64,000 nt of DNA from an uncultured Candidatus Saccharibacteria bacterium (GTDB taxonomy: Bacteria > Patescibacteriota > Minisyncoccia > Phycocordibacterales > UBA9973): contig CAYRQJ010000001.1 in NCBI GenBank assembly GCA_964426555.1, positions 117,633-181,632 of the forward strand, read 5' to 3'. The position numbers and the translations under genes were made by a program. The notes under the pieces were generated by a model. The model saw nothing but the letters and a program-made list of their open reading frames with translations. It was not told where the DNA came from and searched no databases. The number at the start of each line of letters is the position of its first letter. Within the stretch, counting starts at the first letter, position 1. Positions 5,101 to 58,469 of the stretch are shown piece after piece.

Positions 5101-5117
5101 AAAAACCACAACGCAAA

Positions 5118-5150
5118 GGGCGGGGATGAATACATCCCCGCCCATTTTTT
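5118..5150. terminator. Bidirectional rho-independent terminator
   Basis: gggcggggatg-aata-catccccgccc hairpin with an A-tract upstream and a T-tract downstream. It lies between convergent genes. Confidence 0.7.
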
Positions 5151-6434: not shown

Positions 6435-6470
6435 CAGGGCGGGGATGAATTCATCCCTGCCCTGTTTTTT
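6435..6470. terminator. Rho-independent terminator with nearly the same stem as the one at 5118
   Basis: cagggcggggatgaa-ttcatccctgccctg followed by tttttt. Confidence 0.65.
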
Positions 6471-7740: not shown

Positions 7741-7850
7741 ACTTCAACCTCACCCTCACCCTAACCCTCTCCAATAAATTAGAGATGGAATAATCACACA
7801 ACCACACCCCCCTTCTCTATATTTATGGAGCAGGGTCGGGGATGAGGTGT
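7741..7850. repeat. GC-rich imperfect palindrome of the cacctcaccct...ggagagggt family
   Basis: cacctcaccctcaccctaaccctctcc ... ggagcagggtcggggatgaggtg forms a long imperfect inverted repeat in an AT-rich intergenic region. Confidence 0.5.
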
Positions 7851-7953
7851 AACGGAAAAAATCACATCTAACGGGATATCCACATGCTGTGCAAATGTAT
7901 GTATTTGCTATATACAAAATGGTATAATTAATGTAAGAAATTAAAAACTGTAC

Positions 7954-11563: not shown

Positions 11564-13321
11564 ATGTATGTATCACCTGAAGCATTAAAAAAATTTTTAT
11601 TGGATTCAAATCTTGTTAATCAGTCTGACTTAGAAACAGCAGAAAAACAGGTAGAAAAAACTGGTGACAGTTTGGGAAATGTATTAGTTTCTCAAGGAAA
11701 ACTGGACGAAAATGAACTACAAAAATCTATGGGGTATGTTTTAGGAATACCTTTTCTTTCTATTGAAACTGAAAACATTGATTTTGAAACATTGTCTCTA
11801 ATTCCTGAACCTATTGTGCGTGCTCACAATATTGTAGCGTATCGCAAAACCGAAGCTGGTCTAGAAGTAGCAATGCTAGATGTAGATGATCTTGTGGTGT
11901 TGGATTCTTTAAAAAAGAAGCTGGGGGTAAGACTACTACCACGACTAACAAACAGTGCATCTATAAACCATGCACTAACTTTGTATAAAAAAACACTGCA
12001 AGATGAATTTCAAGAAATAATCGACAAAGAAGCCGGCAATGTTAAAGCATTAAATCAAGTAAAAGAAGGTGAAGGAGTAGAATCTGAAAAAGAACTAAAG
12101 CAATTAGCAGAAGATATGCCAATTGTAAAAATTGTTGATTCATTAGTTTCGCATGCAATATTGCAAGGTTCCAGTGATATTCATATGGAACCCCATGAAG
12201 ACGCTTTTTATGTGCGGTACCGTATCGATGGGCTACTACGCGACGCAATGGTGCTACCTAAAAAAACTGCAAGCGGAATAGTTGCACGTATTAAAGTTTT
12301 GTCTAATTTAAAACTGGACGAAAAGCGTTTACCACAAGATGGAAGATTTAAAATAGAACAAGACGGAGTAAAAGTATCTTTTCGTGTCTCAACTTTGCCA
12401 GTATATTACGGAGAAAAAATAGTTATTCGTATTTTGAAAGAAAATTCAAAAGGTTTTTCACTAGAAGGTCTTGGTTTTCATGGTGCATCACTGGAACGTG
12501 CTCATGAAGCACTAAAACAAAAAATTGGAATGATCGTAGCAGCTGGACCAACTGGGTCTGGTAAATCTACAACACTGTATACAATGCTGGATATGGTAAA
12601 TACTCCGGAAGTAAATATTTCAACTGTGGAAGATCCTGTGGAATATCAAATGCCACGAATAAACCAAACCCAAGTAAGACCAGAAATTGGATTAACTTTT
12701 GCAAACGGTTTACGTACTTTACTTCGTCAGGACCCAGACATCGTAATGGTGGGGGAAATTCGTGATGGAGAAACAGCTGGGATTGCAGTTAATGCTGCAC
12801 TAACCGGGCACCTGGTGCTATCAACCATCCACACCAACAGTGCTGCCGGAGCAATTCCTAGATTTGTGGACATGGGAGTTCCTCCTTTTCTTTTAGTATC
12901 AACGCTAAAAATCGTAATTGCTCAAAGACTGGTGCGCAGATTAGCTGAAACAAAAGAAAAATATTTCATGACCGATGCAGAATTGTTACAACTTGGTAAA
13001 TTTGTAGATTTAGACCGTATGATGAATTTCTTAAAAACCGAAAATATAATTGGCCCAAATGATACATGGCGAGAAATCCCTTTTTACAAAGCAGTATCTA
13101 CCCCGGACTGCCCAAGCGGTTATAAAAGCCGTGTTGGACTACACGAAGCTTTAAAAATTAGTTCAGCAATTAAAGAATTAATTCTTAAAAGCGCTACTAA
13201 CGACGCAATTGAAAAACAAGCAAAAGACGAAGGCATGATGACAATGCTTGAAGACGGAGTATTTTTAGCTGTAAAAGGTGAAACAACAATAGAAGAAGTC
13301 TTCCGTGTTATTAATGAATAA
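11564..13321 (+). CDS. pilB: Type IV pilus assembly ATPase PilB (GspE family)
   Basis: N-terminal GSPII_E_N-like region, Walker A GPTGSGKST and GspE signature regions. Confidence 0.9.
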   Translation: MYVSPEALKKFLLDSNLVNQSDLETAEKQVEKTGDSLGNVLVSQGKLDENELQKSMGYVLGIPFLSIETENIDFETLSLIPEPIVRAHNIVAYRKTEAGLEVAMLDVDDLVVLDSLKKKLGVRLLPRLTNSASINHALTLYKKTLQDEFQEIIDKEAGNVKALNQVKEGEGVESEKELKQLAEDMPIVKIVDSLVSHAILQGSSDIHMEPHEDAFYVRYRIDGLLRDAMVLPKKTASGIVARIKVLSNLKLDEKRLPQDGRFKIEQDGVKVSFRVSTLPVYYGEKIVIRILKENSKGFSLEGLGFHGASLERAHEALKQKIGMIVAAGPTGSGKSTTLYTMLDMVNTPEVNISTVEDPVEYQMPRINQTQVRPEIGLTFANGLRTLLRQDPDIVMVGEIRDGETAGIAVNAALTGHLVLSTIHTNSAAGAIPRFVDMGVPPFLLVSTLKIVIAQRLVRRLAETKEKYFMTDAELLQLGKFVDLDRMMNFLKTENIIGPNDTWREIPFYKAVSTPDCPSGYKSRVGLHEALKISSAIKELILKSATNDAIEKQAKDEGMMTMLEDGVFLAVKGETTIEEVFRVINE

Positions 13322-25440: not shown

Positions 25441-25545
25441 ATCACAAAGTGCACCCCACCTAAATCCTCCCCTTCACAGGCGGAGGACTTTGCACTTCTC
25501 CCCTTGTTAAGGGGGAGATAAAGAGGGGGTGCAGTGATATACTAC
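25441..25545. repeat. GC-rich composite palindromic repeat. It contains a reverse-complement copy of the 40-mer found at 51307 and 58381.
   Basis: gcaccccacctaaatcctccccttcacaggcggaggacttt at 25451-25491, plus the ctcccctt-gttaa-gggggag hairpin. The whole unit is bounded by atcacaaagtgcacccc / ggggtgcagtgat. Confidence 0.7.
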
Positions 25546-50606: not shown

Positions 50607-50880
50607 GTAGAAGTATCAAGTTTAGTTGCACGAAAGTCAGGACTTGATATAATTACATTATAGCACAGATGAAGTTCTGGCTTTGTTTTTTTCTAAAGAC
50701 AATATTGATCTATAAGCAATCAGCTAATTTTGCCCGGTGCCTCTCGCGGAGGACGATTTGGTTTCGACTGGATCTATCCTACAAGGTTGTACTACTTGCT
50801 CGGACTTGTGCCTTGCAAGGATTGTTTATAGATTAATGCTGTTTTTAAAAAACCACTGAAATAAATTCAGTGGTTTTTTT
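50607..50880 (+). ncRNA. Candidate structured noncoding RNA (unidentified) bounded by a promoter and an intrinsic terminator
   Basis: No ORF. A GC-rich core ggtgcctctcgcggaggacgatttggtttcgactgg stands out in an AT-rich background. The terminator aaaaaccactgaaataaattcagtggttttttt lies at 50848-50880. Confidence 0.2.
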
Positions 50881-50883
50881 GTT

Positions 50884-50935
50884 TACTTATTTTAACGCAC
50901 CCCACCCTGACCCTCCCCGTGACCAGGGAGGGAAG
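50884..50935. repeat. GC-rich hairpin repeat (family member) overlapping the 3' end of the DUF559 gene
   Basis: gcaccccaccctgaccctcccc-gtgaccag-ggaggg. Confidence 0.6.
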
Positions 50936-51278
50936 ACAGCAAAATCTTAATACTTGTTATTGTTTTATCTAAATCAGATTCTATCTCCTGATTTTTAAAT
51001 CTAATTATATTTAGTCCTAAGGATTTTAAATAATAATCTCTTTCTTTGTCGTAATTTTTATTTTTTAAATGTATTTCTCCATCTAATTCAATTACTAAAT
51101 TTTTATCTTTACAATAAAAATCTACAATATATATACCAATACTATGTTGTCTTCTAAATTTAAATCCTAGTTGTTTGTTTTTTAAATTACTCCAAAGTAA
51201 AGATTCTGCGTTAGTCATATTTTTTCTTAAACTTTGTCTTCTTTCTTTTAAGGTAAATTTAGTAAAAATCTTCTTCAT
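50892..51278 (-). CDS. DUF559 (Vsr-like endonuclease fold) protein
   Basis: LWSNLKNKQLGFKFRRQHSIGIYIVDFYC...ELDGEIH is the DUF559 pattern. The C-terminal residues GHGEGQGGVR are encoded by the GC-rich repeat. Confidence 0.75.
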   Translation of the reverse strand: MKKIFTKFTLKERRQSLRKNMTNAESLLWSNLKNKQLGFKFRRQHSIGIYIVDFYCKDKNLVIELDGEIHLKNKNYDKERDYYLKSLGLNIIRFKNQEIESDLDKTITSIKILLSSLPGHGEGQGGVR

Positions 51279-51300
51279 GTATAAATAATATCATTTATGT

Positions 51301-51352
51301 AGCAAAAGTCCTCCGCCTGTGAAGGGGAGGATTTAGGTGGGGTGCGGTTAGT
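51301..51352. repeat. GC-rich repeat, exact 40-mer copy
   Basis: agtcctccgcctgtgaaggggaggatttaggtggggtgcg at 51307-51346, identical to 58381-58420. Confidence 0.8.
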
Positions 51353-51355
51353 TCT

Positions 51356-53059
51356 TTACTTATTTTCTTCTAAGCTAACAACACTACGTACTTCTTCTAA
51401 TGTTGTGATTTTGTTTAATACTTTTACTATTCCATCTTCGCGCATATCAAATATTCCTTGTTTATCAGCAACTGTTTTGATTTCGTATTCAGAAGGATTG
51501 TTTGGAATAATTTCTTGAATGGATTGGTCATTATAAATTGCTTCAAATATTCCCATTTGGCCCTTGAATCCTGTGAAGTTACATTTCTCACATCCATGCG
51601 CCATGGCTAATTCGTAACTATCTTTTATTTCTACATTATAAGGTTTTAAATCTTTACCATTTTTTACAGCAACATTTAAAATATTATTTATTATCGCAAC
51701 TTCTTCAGCTGTCGCAGGTTTTGTTGTGCTGCAGTCTTTACAAATTTTTCTTACCAACCTTTGTGCAATAGACAAAGATAATGCAGATACAAGAATTTTT
51801 GGGTTTACTCCAAGATCTATAAAACGAGGGATTACTCCGGCAGCGTTGTTGGTGTGCAAAGTAGAGAACACAATGTGTCCAGTTAATGCTGCTTCTATGG
51901 CAATTTCTGCTGTTTCGTGGTCACGGATTTCTCCAACCATTATTACTTCTGGGTCTTGGCGAAGTGCACTACGCAAACCTGCTGCAAAAGTATAGCCTTT
52001 TTCTACATCAGCTTGAGTTTGGGTTATACCCGGTAAATGATATTCAATAGGGTCTTCAATTGTAATGATTTTTACTTCTTTACTATAAATTCTTTGTAAG
52101 AATGAATATAATGATGTTGTTTTACCAGACCCTGTAGGACCAGTTAATAGTATCATTCCATTTGGCTTATGAATTTCAGCATCGATAAGTTTAAATAAAT
52201 TATCTGGGATACCCAATACTTCCATACCAACACGAATAGATTTCGGGTTAAGTAAACGCATTACAATAGACTCACCATATGCTCCTGGGATTAAAGATAC
52301 ACGAACAGATATTTCGTCTTCACCAATAAAAATAGAAAATCTTCCGTCTTGAGCAATAGAACTGTTGGTAATTTTAACTCCGGAAATTAATTTGATACGA
52401 GAAGAAATAAGATGGAAAAATTTAATAGGCAACACTACGGCTTCTTGCAGTACTCCGTCAAGACGATAGCGAATAGTTAAATCATTTTCATTGGGTTCAA
52501 TATGAATGTCAGATGCAGATAATTTCATTGCACCGGCAATAATTGTTTTTAAAACATGAGATGTAAAATGAATACTGTCTTTTCCTGCTTCATCAATTTT
52601 GCTTTTTACATCAGCAATAGTTTTAATAGATTCACCAATTTCCATTATTACGTCTCCTGTAATTTCAATACTACCAGTAGCGCTGGCGGTAGCTCCGGAC
52701 AATTCGGTATAACGCTCCCAAACTTTTTCTAAACTAGCGCGAGACGCAATGTATAATTCGGGATTCATACCTTTACGCTGAATACTTTCTAGAATTTGAG
52801 ACACTTCACCACGGCTGGGTGCATGAGCAGCCACCATTATTTTTTTACCAACAATTTTAAAAGGAGCTACTTCGGCATTTCTAGCTTCGGCTTCGGTAAC
52901 GTAGCGCAGGGCTTCGTTGTCGATAGCAATAGTACCCAAATTAATATAGGGGATGTTATATTTTTCAGCAGAAAGTAGTTGCATTAAGGCTTCTTCTTCT
53001 CTACGACGAAAATCTTCTATGGTTTTGTTTTGTTCGTCTTTATCACTAAGGTTGGACAT
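51356..53059 (-). CDS. Second GspE/PilB-family secretion ATPase (solitary paralog)
   Basis: Walker A GPTGSGKTT, GspE signature, tetracysteine CKDC...CEKC motif. Confidence 0.85.
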   Translation of the reverse strand: MSNLSDKDEQNKTIEDFRRREEEALMQLLSAEKYNIPYINLGTIAIDNEALRYVTEAEARNAEVAPFKIVGKKIMVAAHAPSRGEVSQILESIQRKGMNPELYIASRASLEKVWERYTELSGATASATGSIEITGDVIMEIGESIKTIADVKSKIDEAGKDSIHFTSHVLKTIIAGAMKLSASDIHIEPNENDLTIRYRLDGVLQEAVVLPIKFFHLISSRIKLISGVKITNSSIAQDGRFSIFIGEDEISVRVSLIPGAYGESIVMRLLNPKSIRVGMEVLGIPDNLFKLIDAEIHKPNGMILLTGPTGSGKTTSLYSFLQRIYSKEVKIITIEDPIEYHLPGITQTQADVEKGYTFAAGLRSALRQDPEVIMVGEIRDHETAEIAIEAALTGHIVFSTLHTNNAAGVIPRFIDLGVNPKILVSALSLSIAQRLVRKICKDCSTTKPATAEEVAIINNILNVAVKNGKDLKPYNVEIKDSYELAMAHGCEKCNFTGFKGQMGIFEAIYNDQSIQEIIPNNPSEYEIKTVADKQGIFDMREDGIVKVLNKITTLEEVRSVVSLEENK

Positions 53060-53084
53060 GGGTTTATTATATAGGAAAATAGGG

Positions 53085-53165
53085 AGAGGAGCAAAAACCT
53101 ATAACACCTCAAAAACACACCTCACCCCTGACCCCTCTCCATTAAAATAGGAGAGGGGAATGTGG
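53085..53165. repeat. GC-rich hairpin repeat (family member)
   Basis: cacctcacccctgacccctctcc-attaaaata-ggagagggg. Confidence 0.6.
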
Positions 53166-53170
53166 TTTAT

Positions 53171-53530
53171 TTACAAACTAAGTTCTTTTTTGATTTTTAA
53201 TATTACACTTGGTAAATTTTTAGCAATTTCGCTATTCCAAAATCTAAGAACTTTAATATCTTTTGAGTTTAAGTATTCTTGTCGTCCAAGATCATAATTT
53301 TTTGTTTCTTTATTATGCACACCACCATCTAGTTCTATACATAACTTCATTTCTGGACAATAAAAATCAAGGATAAATTTATCCAAGGGGTGTTGTCTTC
53401 TAAATTTAAAGCCTAGTTTGTTATTACGTAAAAATTTCCAAAGCATTTTTTCTTCAATAGTTTCTTCCTTTCTTAAATATCTAGATTTTTTAATTAGATC
53501 AACTTTATTCATGTATTTAAATTTTACCAC
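53171..53530 (-). CDS. DUF559 (Vsr-like endonuclease fold) protein, second copy
   Basis: MLWKFLRNNKLGFKFRRQHPLDKFILDFYCPEMKLCIELDGGVH. Confidence 0.75.
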   Translation of the reverse strand: MVKFKYMNKVDLIKKSRYLRKEETIEEKMLWKFLRNNKLGFKFRRQHPLDKFILDFYCPEMKLCIELDGGVHNKETKNYDLGRQEYLNSKDIKVLRFWNSEIAKNLPSVILKIKKELSL

Positions 53531-53590
53531 ATTCCTTTCTCCGCAAAAGTGGGGAGAAAGGTAAGGGATGAGGTGTTTTTGGGATATAAA
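53531..53590. repeat. GC-rich hairpin repeat (family member)
   Basis: cctttctcc-gcaaaagtg-gggagaaagg ... gggatgaggtg. Confidence 0.55.
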
Positions 53591-54932: not shown

Positions 54933-54947
54933 TTGTATAAACTTGAC

Positions 54948-55014
54948 CCCGTTAGAGCCAAGCCGCCCCAAGGTGGCTGTAGCACTCGCGTTGCGAGGGC
55001 GGGCCTCTAACGGG
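54948..55014. mobile_element. MITE-like element copy 4 (GC-rich interior), inserted at a promoter -35 box
   Basis: TIR CCCGTTAGAG / CTCTAACGGG. Flanks are cttgac / gttgac. The right flank is the TTGACA of the downstream promoter. Confidence 0.5.
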
Positions 55015-55015
55015 G

Positions 55016-55045
55016 TTGACAAAAGCCTATAAAAGGTGATATAAT
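55016..55045 (+). promoter_or_regulatory. Sigma70-like promoter TTGACA-18-TATAAT for the 55052 gene
   Basis: TTGACA at 55016-55021, TATAAT at 55040-55045, ATG at 55052. Confidence 0.55.
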
Positions 55046-58268: not shown

Positions 58269-58380
58269 TATTTAAAACTAAGCTCTTCTCAAAATGCACA
58301 CATAATTTTTTGAGAAAAATTTGCTCTGCTCGAAGGATGGACCTTCTGCGCAAGGCATTTTTCAAAGACTTAGTTTTTAA

Positions 58381-58420
58381 AGTCCTCCGCCTGTGAAGGG
58401 GAGGATTTAGGTGGGGTGCG
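58381..58420. repeat. GC-rich repeat, exact 40-mer copy
   Basis: Identical to 51307-51346. A reverse complement lies at 25451-25491. Confidence 0.8.
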
Positions 58421-58469
58421 TTATAGAAGCTAAAGAATTTATTAGTGGGTTTTGTGCTAAAATAGGCTT

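Follow-up and report, generated by a model that had tools for sequence, protein, structure and literature searches.

Variably present cassettes of a DUF559 gene between triplex-motif repeats in a Saccharibacteria genome, and the association of gene and repeats across bacterial phyla

The stretch of DNA analyzed here (64 kb of contig CAYRQJ010000001.1 from an uncultured Candidatus Saccharibacteria bacterium, in the following "the window") contains three genes on the minus strand in the order DUF559, pilB, DUF559, and both DUF559 genes are enclosed by GC-rich repeats. DUF559 #1 occupies positions 50892-51278 (128 amino acids [aa]), the gene of the PilB/GspE-type ATPase (PilB/T2SSE; E = 1.4e-115) occupies 51356-53059, and DUF559 #2 occupies 53171-53530; a first-pass annotation of the window had given the open reading frames (ORFs) of this layout with exact coordinates. 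Both small proteins match the Pfam family PF04480 (E = 1.4e-34 for DUF559 #1 and 6.4e-34 for DUF559 #2), with bit scores of 118.7 and 116.5 for the pair compared to a curated cut-off of 20.6. They are 45% identical to each other, and a further DUF559 copy was not found in the 64 kb by tblastn.

The two longest inverted repeats between 50700 and 53800 each bracket one DUF559 gene, at 50896-50923/51319-51346 (79% complementary; with the enclosed gene, cassette A) and at 53113-53140/53553-53580 (82% complementary; cassette B). What had been described as four GC-rich hairpins on both sides of the DUF559 genes is two pairs of terminal inverted repeats. In cassette A, the stop-side repeat lies at 50891-50937 (minus strand, TCCCTCCC-loop-GGGGAGGG-TCA-GGGTGGGG) and the start-side repeat at 51304-51349 (plus strand, TCCTCC-loop-GGGGAGGA-TTTA-GGTGGGGTG); both are of a subtype that we call A. 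The repeats of cassette B are of subtype B, with the stop-side unit at 53113-53165 (minus strand, CCCCTCTCC-loop-GGAGAGGGG-TCA-GGGGTGAGG) and a degenerate start-side unit at 53527-53581 (plus strand, TTCCTTTCTCC-loop-GGGGAGAAAGG-TAA-GGGATGAGGTG). The third repeat had initially been drawn too wide (53085-53165), since 53113 is the first position of its unit and nothing more than a partial, tail-like copy is present in 53085-53112.

Searched with a profile of the units, the window yields exactly nine copies, of which four are the gene-flanking ones. The others are a subtype B inverted doublet at 7746-7857 in the spacer of divergent genes, with its tails outward and resembling a miniature inverted-repeat transposable element (MITE) or a REPIN (a hairpin-forming doublet of repetitive extragenic palindromic [REP] sequences), a subtype A inverted doublet at 25446-25535 between divergent sod-like and metallo-beta-lactamase-fold genes, and a solo subtype A unit at 58379-58424 (plus strand) between a class II tRNA-synthetase-like gene and polA. 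Each window paralog is flanked by its own repeat subtype, and each subtype also has these gene-less copies. The copies can be very similar: 42 nt of the unit 51304-51349 are identical to 58383-58424 and, reverse-complemented, to 25446-25487. A degenerate tail pattern gave four matches, compared to 0.13 expected from shuffled sequences.

Each gene-flanking end begins on the outside with a C-rich tail (CACCCCACC or CACCTCAYCC), which a short spacer separates from a GC hairpin with an all-pyrimidine 5′ arm. On the G-rich strand of both subtypes, the tail mirrors the purine arm, except that T stands where the arm has A. The gene-flanking units fold better than shuffled sequences (z = −2.3 to −4.7), the doublet at 7746-7857 folds as a single long hairpin (z = −4.4), and the doublet at 25446-25535 reaches z = −5.7, all with a tool that models Watson-Crick hairpins only. 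To this extent the repeats are hairpins, as had been stated, but they are not plain ones, since a third, mirrored block is present. This block, the inverted pairing of the ends and the gene-less copies elsewhere in the window had been missed before.

The repeats reach into reading frames. All nine units are intergenic except 50891-50937, which overlaps the 3′ end of DUF559 #1 and encodes its last 14 codons and the stop codon, as had been noticed from the ORF; the C-terminal tail SLPGHGEGQGGVR is translated repeat, and its residues are disordered in the structural model described below. At the other gene, the listed GTG start (53530; 119 aa) falls in the inner flank of the repeat, and the ATG at 53512 (MNKVDL...; 113 aa) is the more likely start because it better matches the starts of homologues. 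The stop-side repeat of cassette B is located 53-105 nt upstream of the pilB ATG. In the public record, PilB has 587 aa (P0121), which implies a GTG start inside this repeat (unit B1; window 53059-53119); since the PilB proteins of relatives have 565-577 aa and the ATG at 53059 aligns with their starts, the longer start was probably called in error owing to the inserted repeat. An exact look-up of the window PilB accordingly found no record, as the public call has the longer start. Sigma-70-like promoter sites were no commoner in our scan than in shuffled sequences, and none could be attributed to the DUF559 genes.

By their block structure, the window repeats can be placed in the BoxC/PIT/"TM" family of intrastrand triplex motifs (TM), as variants and not as TMECO proper. 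BoxC/PIT/TM repeats have been known in Escherichia coli since the 1990s (earlier descriptions of BoxC and PIT are cited in PMC4666352). In these repeats, a C-rich block is followed by its G-rich complement and then by a mirrored G-rich block in which A may become T, with short loops in between; the TMECO consensus is CCCTCNCCC N3-6 GGGNGAGGG N3 GGGNGAGGG (Holder et al. 2015, PMC4666352). Holder et al. count 23 TMECO copies in E. coli K-12, all of them intergenic and five as inverted doublets that combine two subtypes, and 3610 copies in 262 proteobacterial genomes; in vitro the motif adopts a triplex, and in E. coli its loci are prone to rearrangement (PMC4666352). The window units have the same three-block architecture, with a 3-nt loop before the mirrored G-rich block and T for A therein, and they are likewise intergenic, dispersed and often arranged as inverted doublets of two subtypes. 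However, their first loop has 7-11 nt compared to 3-6 nt in TMECO, the blocks are shifted or of other sequence (subtype A is CCCTCCCC/GGGTGGGG), and the host is an AT-rich, Saccharibacteria-like genome, whereas TMECO has been catalogued in Proteobacteria. Consistent with a variant, a three-block motif finder (7-nt blocks, at most one mismatch) recovered seven of the nine units, the two missed being degenerate partners, and the strict TMECO consensus had no match in the window. Rfam holds no family for the repeats or doublets; only sub-threshold chance matches to microRNA hairpins were obtained. A G-quadruplex of G-rich arm and tail may also be considered, but the mirrored third block is better matched by a triplex motif.

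Comparison with relatives shows each DUF559 gene together with its two repeats to be, at the sequence level, a discrete insertion cassette of ~0.46 kb that is variably present. Four relatives (L002, L209, L210 and L211; PilB 80-85% and RuvB 79-85% identical to the window proteins) have the same gene order, i.e., an unknown gene of 350-460 aa on the minus strand upstream of pilB, then pilB, a variable spacer, a conserved block of ~135 nt, ruvB and ruvC. In L209, L210 and L211 (PilB 83-85% identical) neither cassette is present and 7.7 kb contain zero units. L002 has a relative of cassette A (72% protein identity) and nothing upstream of pilB. A third context is found in L005, a contig of a Saccharibacteria metagenome-assembled genome, where a cassette A relative (73%) is located between an ATPase gene and map. 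The presence/absence polymorphism that the first-pass annotation had proposed to look for in relatives is thus seen, and its idea of endonuclease cassettes with terminal repeats of their own agrees with these discrete units. In the three-way alignment of cassette A, the invariant columns amount to 20% in the flanks, 84% in the left repeat, 69% in the spacer, 74% in the ORF and 93% in the right repeat. The boundaries are sharp because of this step from the flanks to the repeats and the ORF; similarity begins and breaks off at the repeat tails, and conservation is higher in the ends than in the gene.

In the window, cassette A sits between the stop codon of pilB and the pilB terminator, a bidirectional intrinsic terminator at 50847-50879 (14-bp stem and T-run; an AT-rich hairpin) that is now downstream of the cassette; in the relatives, a terminator directly follows pilB. 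The cassette is flanked by a direct repeat with 12 exact matches, one copy at 50878-50893 (minus strand, AAAATAAGTAAACAAA), followed by the terminator, and the other at 51351-51366 (minus strand, AAAATAAGTAAAGAAC), containing the pilB stop codon; removal of the cassette would restore "stop codon plus terminator." This 12-nt repeat looks like a target-site duplication and was seen for cassette A only. The empty sites of the relatives contain no repeat, and with neighbors of 79-85% protein identity they are too diverged to define a site.

The association of gene and repeats extends far beyond the window. From a scan of one genome per species with the DUF559 alignment, we compared the 80 best loci, all of the short subfamily nearest to the query; they come from Saccharibacteria and other Patescibacteria, Bacteroidota, Gamma- and Alphaproteobacteria, Chloroflexi, Planctomycetota, Cyanobacteria, Elusimicrobia and others. 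When the left flank was aligned to the reverse-complemented right flank, the median score was 34 versus 18 in displaced controls, and 65% of the loci exceeded the 95th percentile of the controls. Perfect GC hairpins with a pyrimidine arm occur at 5.2/kb in the 150 nt upstream and at 3.3/kb in the 150 nt downstream, compared to a background of 0.03-0.13/kb beyond 500 nt of the genes. The three-block triplex motifs behave in the same way (3.2 and 2.0/kb within 250 nt versus 0.015-0.08/kb beyond 1 kb), which corresponds to a 25- to 200-fold density near DUF559. At least one triplex motif was found at 53 of the 80 loci and motifs on both sides at 33. Furthermore, many DUF559 homologues carry terminal extensions, such as PLRRGASSPSQGR, that are translated repeat.

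The repeats greatly exceed the genes in number. When metagenomes were scanned for the subtype A tail and arm, at least 120 loci were obtained, on host contigs of 33% to 70% GC, and over this range the 21-nt tail-plus-arm sequence recurs exactly. Among the 127 matches listed, the complementary arm follows immediately in 100, and many are inverted doublets or alternating arrays. A near-identical inverted partner was found by a strict search for only 20 of these 127, because partner units usually belong to another subtype. A DUF559 gene lies within 150 nt of only 6-7 of the matches listed (~5%), and 71 of them have no DUF559 gene despite at least 600 nt on both sides. The 150 ORFs beside the metagenome units fall into 138 Pfam families, none of which recurs more than twice, and among the 25 most recurrent of these families there is no transposase or integrase; DUF559 is therefore the sole recurrent neighbor, at only ~5% of the units. 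Four matches to the unit pattern are in viral contigs. As a separate observation, one kind of organism of ~60% GC has many subtype A units that are each preceded by GCTCGCT(T/G)CGCTCG (L109, L114, L124, L127, L157, L169, L171, L172, L179, L180, L187, L193, L197 and L203), which looks like a lineage-specific composite version of the repeat.

E. coli offers the same pairing. The DUF559 protein YcjD of strain K-12 is 44% identical to DUF559 #2, the closer of the two window proteins, and the repeats associated with YcjD are subtype B-like. The gene ends in "...RRSPSP," inside a degenerate unit, and the published TMECO #9 (1,351,239-1,351,204) is located ~170 nt downstream. The 3′ end of ycjD is present again as a remnant between the degenerate unit and TMECO #9 (GGAGACGGTGCTGGAGAATATTC...CTGAACCG; L212, K-12 1351204-1351420), which suggests a nested or tandem cassette event. 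ycjD is a single-copy gene present in 3377 of 5426 complete E. coli genomes, without a second paralog detectable by blastn. Among 60 genomes sampled at even spacing, 37 carry ycjD and show a median of 17 further repeat places (11-25), compared to a median of 2 (1-16) in the 23 that lack it (Mann-Whitney p = 5e-10); the ycjD-negative strains ST131, UTI89 and Nissle have 1-2, and an O55:H7 strain has 12. ycjD is a marker of the phylogroups A, B1 and C, in which it stands in place of the eefRABCD operon (PMC12817139). In the ycjD-negative strains a TetR gene and a resistance-nodulation-division (RND) efflux operon (eefRABCD) are found upstream of fabI (L214, BEN2908; L215, O157:H7), and homology to K-12 breaks ~40 nt short of TMECO #9.

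Outside E. coli, named YcjD homologues come from Enterobacter asburiae, Enterobacter cloacae, Klebsiella, Kluyvera and others, and none of the best 120 is from Salmonella; both Enterobacter species are rich in repeats. TMECO is richest in E. asburiae and absent in Salmonella (PMC4666352). In E. asburiae the DUF559 gene is at a different locus, where an inverted repeat doublet abuts its 3′ end, and a second, gene-less doublet is located 4.6 kb away. Three independent Enterobacter short-read contigs (Logan; L218, L219 and L220) end 5 nt after the DUF559 gene, inside the doublet; the repeats thus break assemblies and may hide cassettes at contig ends. Taken over the genomes compared here, the association of DUF559 with the repeats holds across phyla for the short subfamily, E. 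coli ycjD included, and the repeats far outnumber the genes. The co-occurrence expected in the first-pass annotation is therefore found from the side of the gene, since DUF559 genes elsewhere carry the repeats, but not from the side of the repeats, which relate to the gene as REP sequences do to their REP-associated tyrosine transposase (RAYT). Holder et al. report that no mobility function was ever found near the repeats, and their survey does not mention ycjD, DUF559 or any endonuclease (PMC4666352). DUF559 and the triplex repeats are each already known; in a search mostly outside subscription journals, a connection of DUF559 or ycjD with these repeats was not found in any paper.

The AlphaFold2 model of DUF559 has a predicted local distance difference test (pLDDT) score of 85. 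Foldseek matches it to the DUF559 structure of Neisseria gonorrhoeae (3HRL; target template-modeling score [TM-score] 0.90), next to the catalytic domain of the homing endonuclease I-Bth0305I (3R3P; E = 7e-5, target TM-score 0.69) and then to Vsr (1VSR; E = 0.04) and the Vsr-like domains of AbaSI and PvuRts1I. The model thereby agrees with the Vsr-like endonuclease fold proposed earlier and describes DUF559 as a nuclease of ~115 aa with a predicted Vsr-like/EDxHD fold. At the sequence level, a profile of 20 homologues matches 3HRL in the Protein Data Bank (PDB; E = 1.9e-32), and the residues D53, E64, D66, H70 and D77, invariant in these 20, probably have a catalytic role. The sequence-only PDB search detected neither Vsr nor I-Bth0305I, so that the relation is at the fold level only, and Pfam Vsr (PF03852) gave no match at E ≤ 0.01, where only DUF559 and a sub-threshold MTES_1575 appeared. 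YcjD is known to detect Vsr by profile comparison, and DUF559/YcjD has been placed with Vsr in the PD-(D/E)XK superfamily (PMC3424549, PMC1189080). The label "very-short-patch-repair endonuclease," which DUF559 proteins often bear in the source databases, is an annotation transfer and does not testify to T/G mismatch repair. No function is shown for any DUF559 member in the papers that we found, again mostly outside subscription journals.

With moderate confidence, we propose that DUF559 is an enzyme dedicated to the triplex repeats, that the cassettes are autonomous, and that the gene-less units are served in trans, in a manner similar to REP and RAYT; the nuclease role in this model is inferred. 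In our model, DUF559 would recognize the structured repeat (hairpin, cruciform or triplex) when it is extruded from single-stranded or supercoiled DNA and would nick at or near it, after which the DNA bounded by the repeats would be copied or rearranged through host replication and repair. Cassettes with the gene would be autonomous; the far more numerous doublets and solo units without it would derive from them as non-autonomous forms that DUF559 serves in trans. pilB is a mere neighbor that received one cassette of each subtype, one per side. A farther-reaching version, which we offer only tentatively and which we think more probably wrong than right, is that repeat-DUF559-repeat constitutes an unrecognized class of minimal mobile elements (~450 bp) with triplex/hairpin ends and a 115-aa Vsr-like nuclease as the only protein; the BoxC/PIT/TM repeats, from E. 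coli to Saccharibacteria, would descend from it as their autonomous parent, and its spread would rely on nicking of structured DNA and on host replication/repair, with no transposase.

The likeness to REP/REPIN-RAYT is meant as "works like" and not as membership, and the comparison supports it in this sense. In both systems, one or few genes per genome are flanked by short palindromic repeats of their own, many more copies are gene-less, inverted doublets included, the paralog matches the repeat subtype, and there are fewer repeats where the gene is absent. The alternative put forward in the first-pass annotation, that the repeats are REP-like elements, is borne out by a dispersed BoxC/PIT/TM family that is mostly gene-less and forms inverted doublets. 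However, RAYT (TnpA-REP) is a Y1 HUH transposase, whereas DUF559 is predicted to be a Vsr-like, PD-(D/E)XK-type nuclease; the REP heads GTAG or CGTC are absent here, where the heads are CACCCCACC or CACCTCAYCC. Moreover, REPs are typically species-specific, whereas the window-type tail-plus-arm sequence is conserved across very different genomes. Elements of the insertion sequence family IS200/IS605, other hairpin-ended elements and MITEs resemble the cassettes in being very small, in having structured hairpin ends and miniature non-autonomous derivatives, and in lacking a general target-site duplication. Unlike them, the cassettes contain no HUH, DDE, serine or tyrosine recombinase, their sole ORF being the DUF559 nuclease; in addition, the ends are more conserved than the gene among the three cassettes compared, and their relative orientation varies. 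To Vsr, DUF559 is a distant fold relative (1VSR, E = 0.04), but with no match to Pfam Vsr and no adjacent cytosine methyltransferase at the window locus; indeed, none of the neighbors of the DUF559 genes is a C5-cytosine methyltransferase gene.

Several points weigh against a dedicated enzyme. The link between DUF559 and the repeats is associative, and it was sampled only in the short DUF559 subfamily closest to the query; under strict criteria, 14 of the 80 loci have no hairpin and 27 have no triplex motif. Proteins with a common tail type are slightly more alike (47.2% versus 44.4% identity, a difference reached by 0 of 2,000 label shuffles), but this co-variation of protein and repeat subtype is small and taxonomically confounded. 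In E. coli, the ycjD-negative genomes of the sample comprise a low group (1-3 places; ST131, UTI89 and Nissle among them) and a higher group (8-16; O55:H7 among them), and the correlation of repeats with ycjD tracks phylogroups and reflects few independent events, with phylogenetic confounding. The intact doublet of E. asburiae stands beside the gene and not around it. Two features of many mobile elements were looked for and rejected as a rule: flanking direct repeats at 35 well-bounded loci were no longer than in controls, which speaks against a general target-site duplication, and motif pairs on both sides (33 loci) were inverted in 19 cases and direct in 14, which speaks against strict terminal inverted repeats. 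Furthermore, a 115-aa hydrolytic nuclease is unable to do strand transfer alone, and to our knowledge no known class of mobile elements works by such a nuclease-only route.

The main rival, which we consider unlikely, is that DUF559 is a free-standing homing-type endonuclease gene that parasitizes pre-existing repeats as cleavage or landing sites; the repair of breaks from an occupied copy would spread the gene, and the repeats would have some other means of spreading. Indeed, the closest functionally characterized structural relative is a homing endonuclease, I-Bth0305I (PMC3239194), with which DUF559 shares the fold of the catalytic domain (EDxHD/Vsr-like) and a small, selfish-looking nuclease gene. 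Gene-less inverted doublets resemble "empty" sites, the window genes sit between two inverted units, the absence of a general target-site duplication fits repair-based copying, and the excess of repeats over genes agrees with such targets. However, I-Bth0305I resides in a group I intron of a phage recA gene and has an added DNA-binding region, whereas the DUF559 of the window is a bare 115-aa domain encoded by a free-standing, intergenic gene with repeat ends. At both window sites the empty loci of the relatives are repeat-free, which argues that the repeats came with the gene and were not waiting targets, and the 12-nt direct repeat of cassette A stands outside its repeats. Efficient homing also predicts many doublets with near-identical genes, but E. 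coli genomes with 11-25 repeat loci have just one ycjD, and identity between the two genes of the window is only 45%. The doublet beside the gene in E. asburiae is intact.

Somewhat less probable still is that DUF559 is a host-beneficial, structure-specific repair nuclease that clears triplex or hairpin blocks and is linked to the repeats by selection, or by recombination hot spots that collect small genes. It is supported by the finding that PIT/TM elements stall DNA polymerase in vitro and by the rearrangement-prone repeat loci of E. coli (PMC4666352), by the fold common to DUF559 and the repair nickase Vsr and by the stability of the single-copy ycjD within the E. coli phylogroups A, B1 and C. 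A repair function leaves unexplained, however, why in many phyla repeats are found at most tens of bases from both gene ends and fall to background by 0.5-1 kb, why gene and repeats are gained or lost together as a sharp-ended block in three contexts, and why in genomes without the gene the repeats are reduced in number and not more harmful. Nor does any other gene family accumulate at the repeats.

It seems very improbable to us that the repeats serve a housekeeping DUF559 gene as ordinary regulatory or terminator hairpins and recur by convergence of GC-rich stems. One unit scores as terminator-like (51325-51310), and the units occupy 5′ and 3′ untranslated positions. Yet the real terminator is the separate AT-rich hairpin downstream of cassette A, PIT elements had neither promoter nor terminator activity in published tests (PMC4666352), and the 21-nt tail-plus-arm sequence is found again without change over 33-70% GC; the third mirrored block has no role in termination, and gene-less copies stand between divergent genes. 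We practically dismiss a composite selfish element in which two DUF559 cassettes mobilize pilB as cargo, an idea from the first-pass annotation that draws on the layout alone (a DUF559 gene plus repeats at each side of pilB, the two genes pointing the same way) and that is contradicted by synteny, as pilB lies in the same place between the same neighbors in the four relatives, which have one cassette or none, and by the cassettes themselves, which differ in repeat subtype, encode proteins of 45% identity and have a pair of ends each.

If DUF559 is indeed the enzyme of the triplex repeats, a family of repeats with thousands of copies in hundreds of genomes in the largest survey, which tied them to genome instability (PMC4666352), gains a candidate enzyme, and an orphan but very widespread protein family with a solved structure gains a substrate. 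A second partnership of a repeat and a dedicated enzyme would then exist beside REP/RAYT, with a different mechanism. ycjD of E. coli K-12 would be an immediate genetic and biochemical test case. The model would also explain many of the spurious C- and N-terminal extensions ("PSP..GEG") of annotated DUF559 proteins as well as some contig breaks.

pilB is a resident gene outside both cassettes, and the genes adjoining the locus are pilB, ruvB and the gene of a 396-aa protein without a Pfam match. The description of PilB as a solitary paralog is in line with the window, in which a second T2SSE ATPase is encoded at 12131-13288 (plus strand; 40% identical to the pilB product of 51-53 kb). Near position ~14450 the sequence, judged by eye, looks as if a PilC/GspF-type gene ended there; in that case this region would contain the pilus cluster, and pilB at 51-53 kb would be a separate paralog. 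The spacer between pilB and ruvB is a variable spot in the clade: it contains a pilin-like N_methyl gene in L209 (4791-5225), two unknown ORFs in L211 (4835-6179) and two small ORFs plus cassette A in L002 (5497-5929).

Between cassette A with the pilB terminator and ruvB, a block of ~135 nt (50695-50846, minus strand) is 85-90% identical in the four relatives, and the surrounding intergenic DNA is not conserved likewise. RNAalifold predicts a 17-bp closing helix and two internal hairpins for this block, with compensatory double changes in four pairs. It has no Rfam match and is a candidate for an unannotated noncoding RNA or a ruvB leader in Saccharibacteria. Two further GC-rich features were noted in the window. 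An 88-nt GC-rich, long imperfect palindrome (…GACCCCGTTAGAGC…GCCTCTAACGGGGTTGAC…) at 54940-55027, also without an Rfam match, directly follows the gene of the 396-aa protein in AT-rich surroundings. A pair of GC-rich palindromes at 5112-5143 and 6435-6464 (GGGCGGGGATGAAT[A/T]CATCCC[C/T]GCCC), 1.3 kb apart and unrelated to the repeat units, may represent terminators or another small repeat family.

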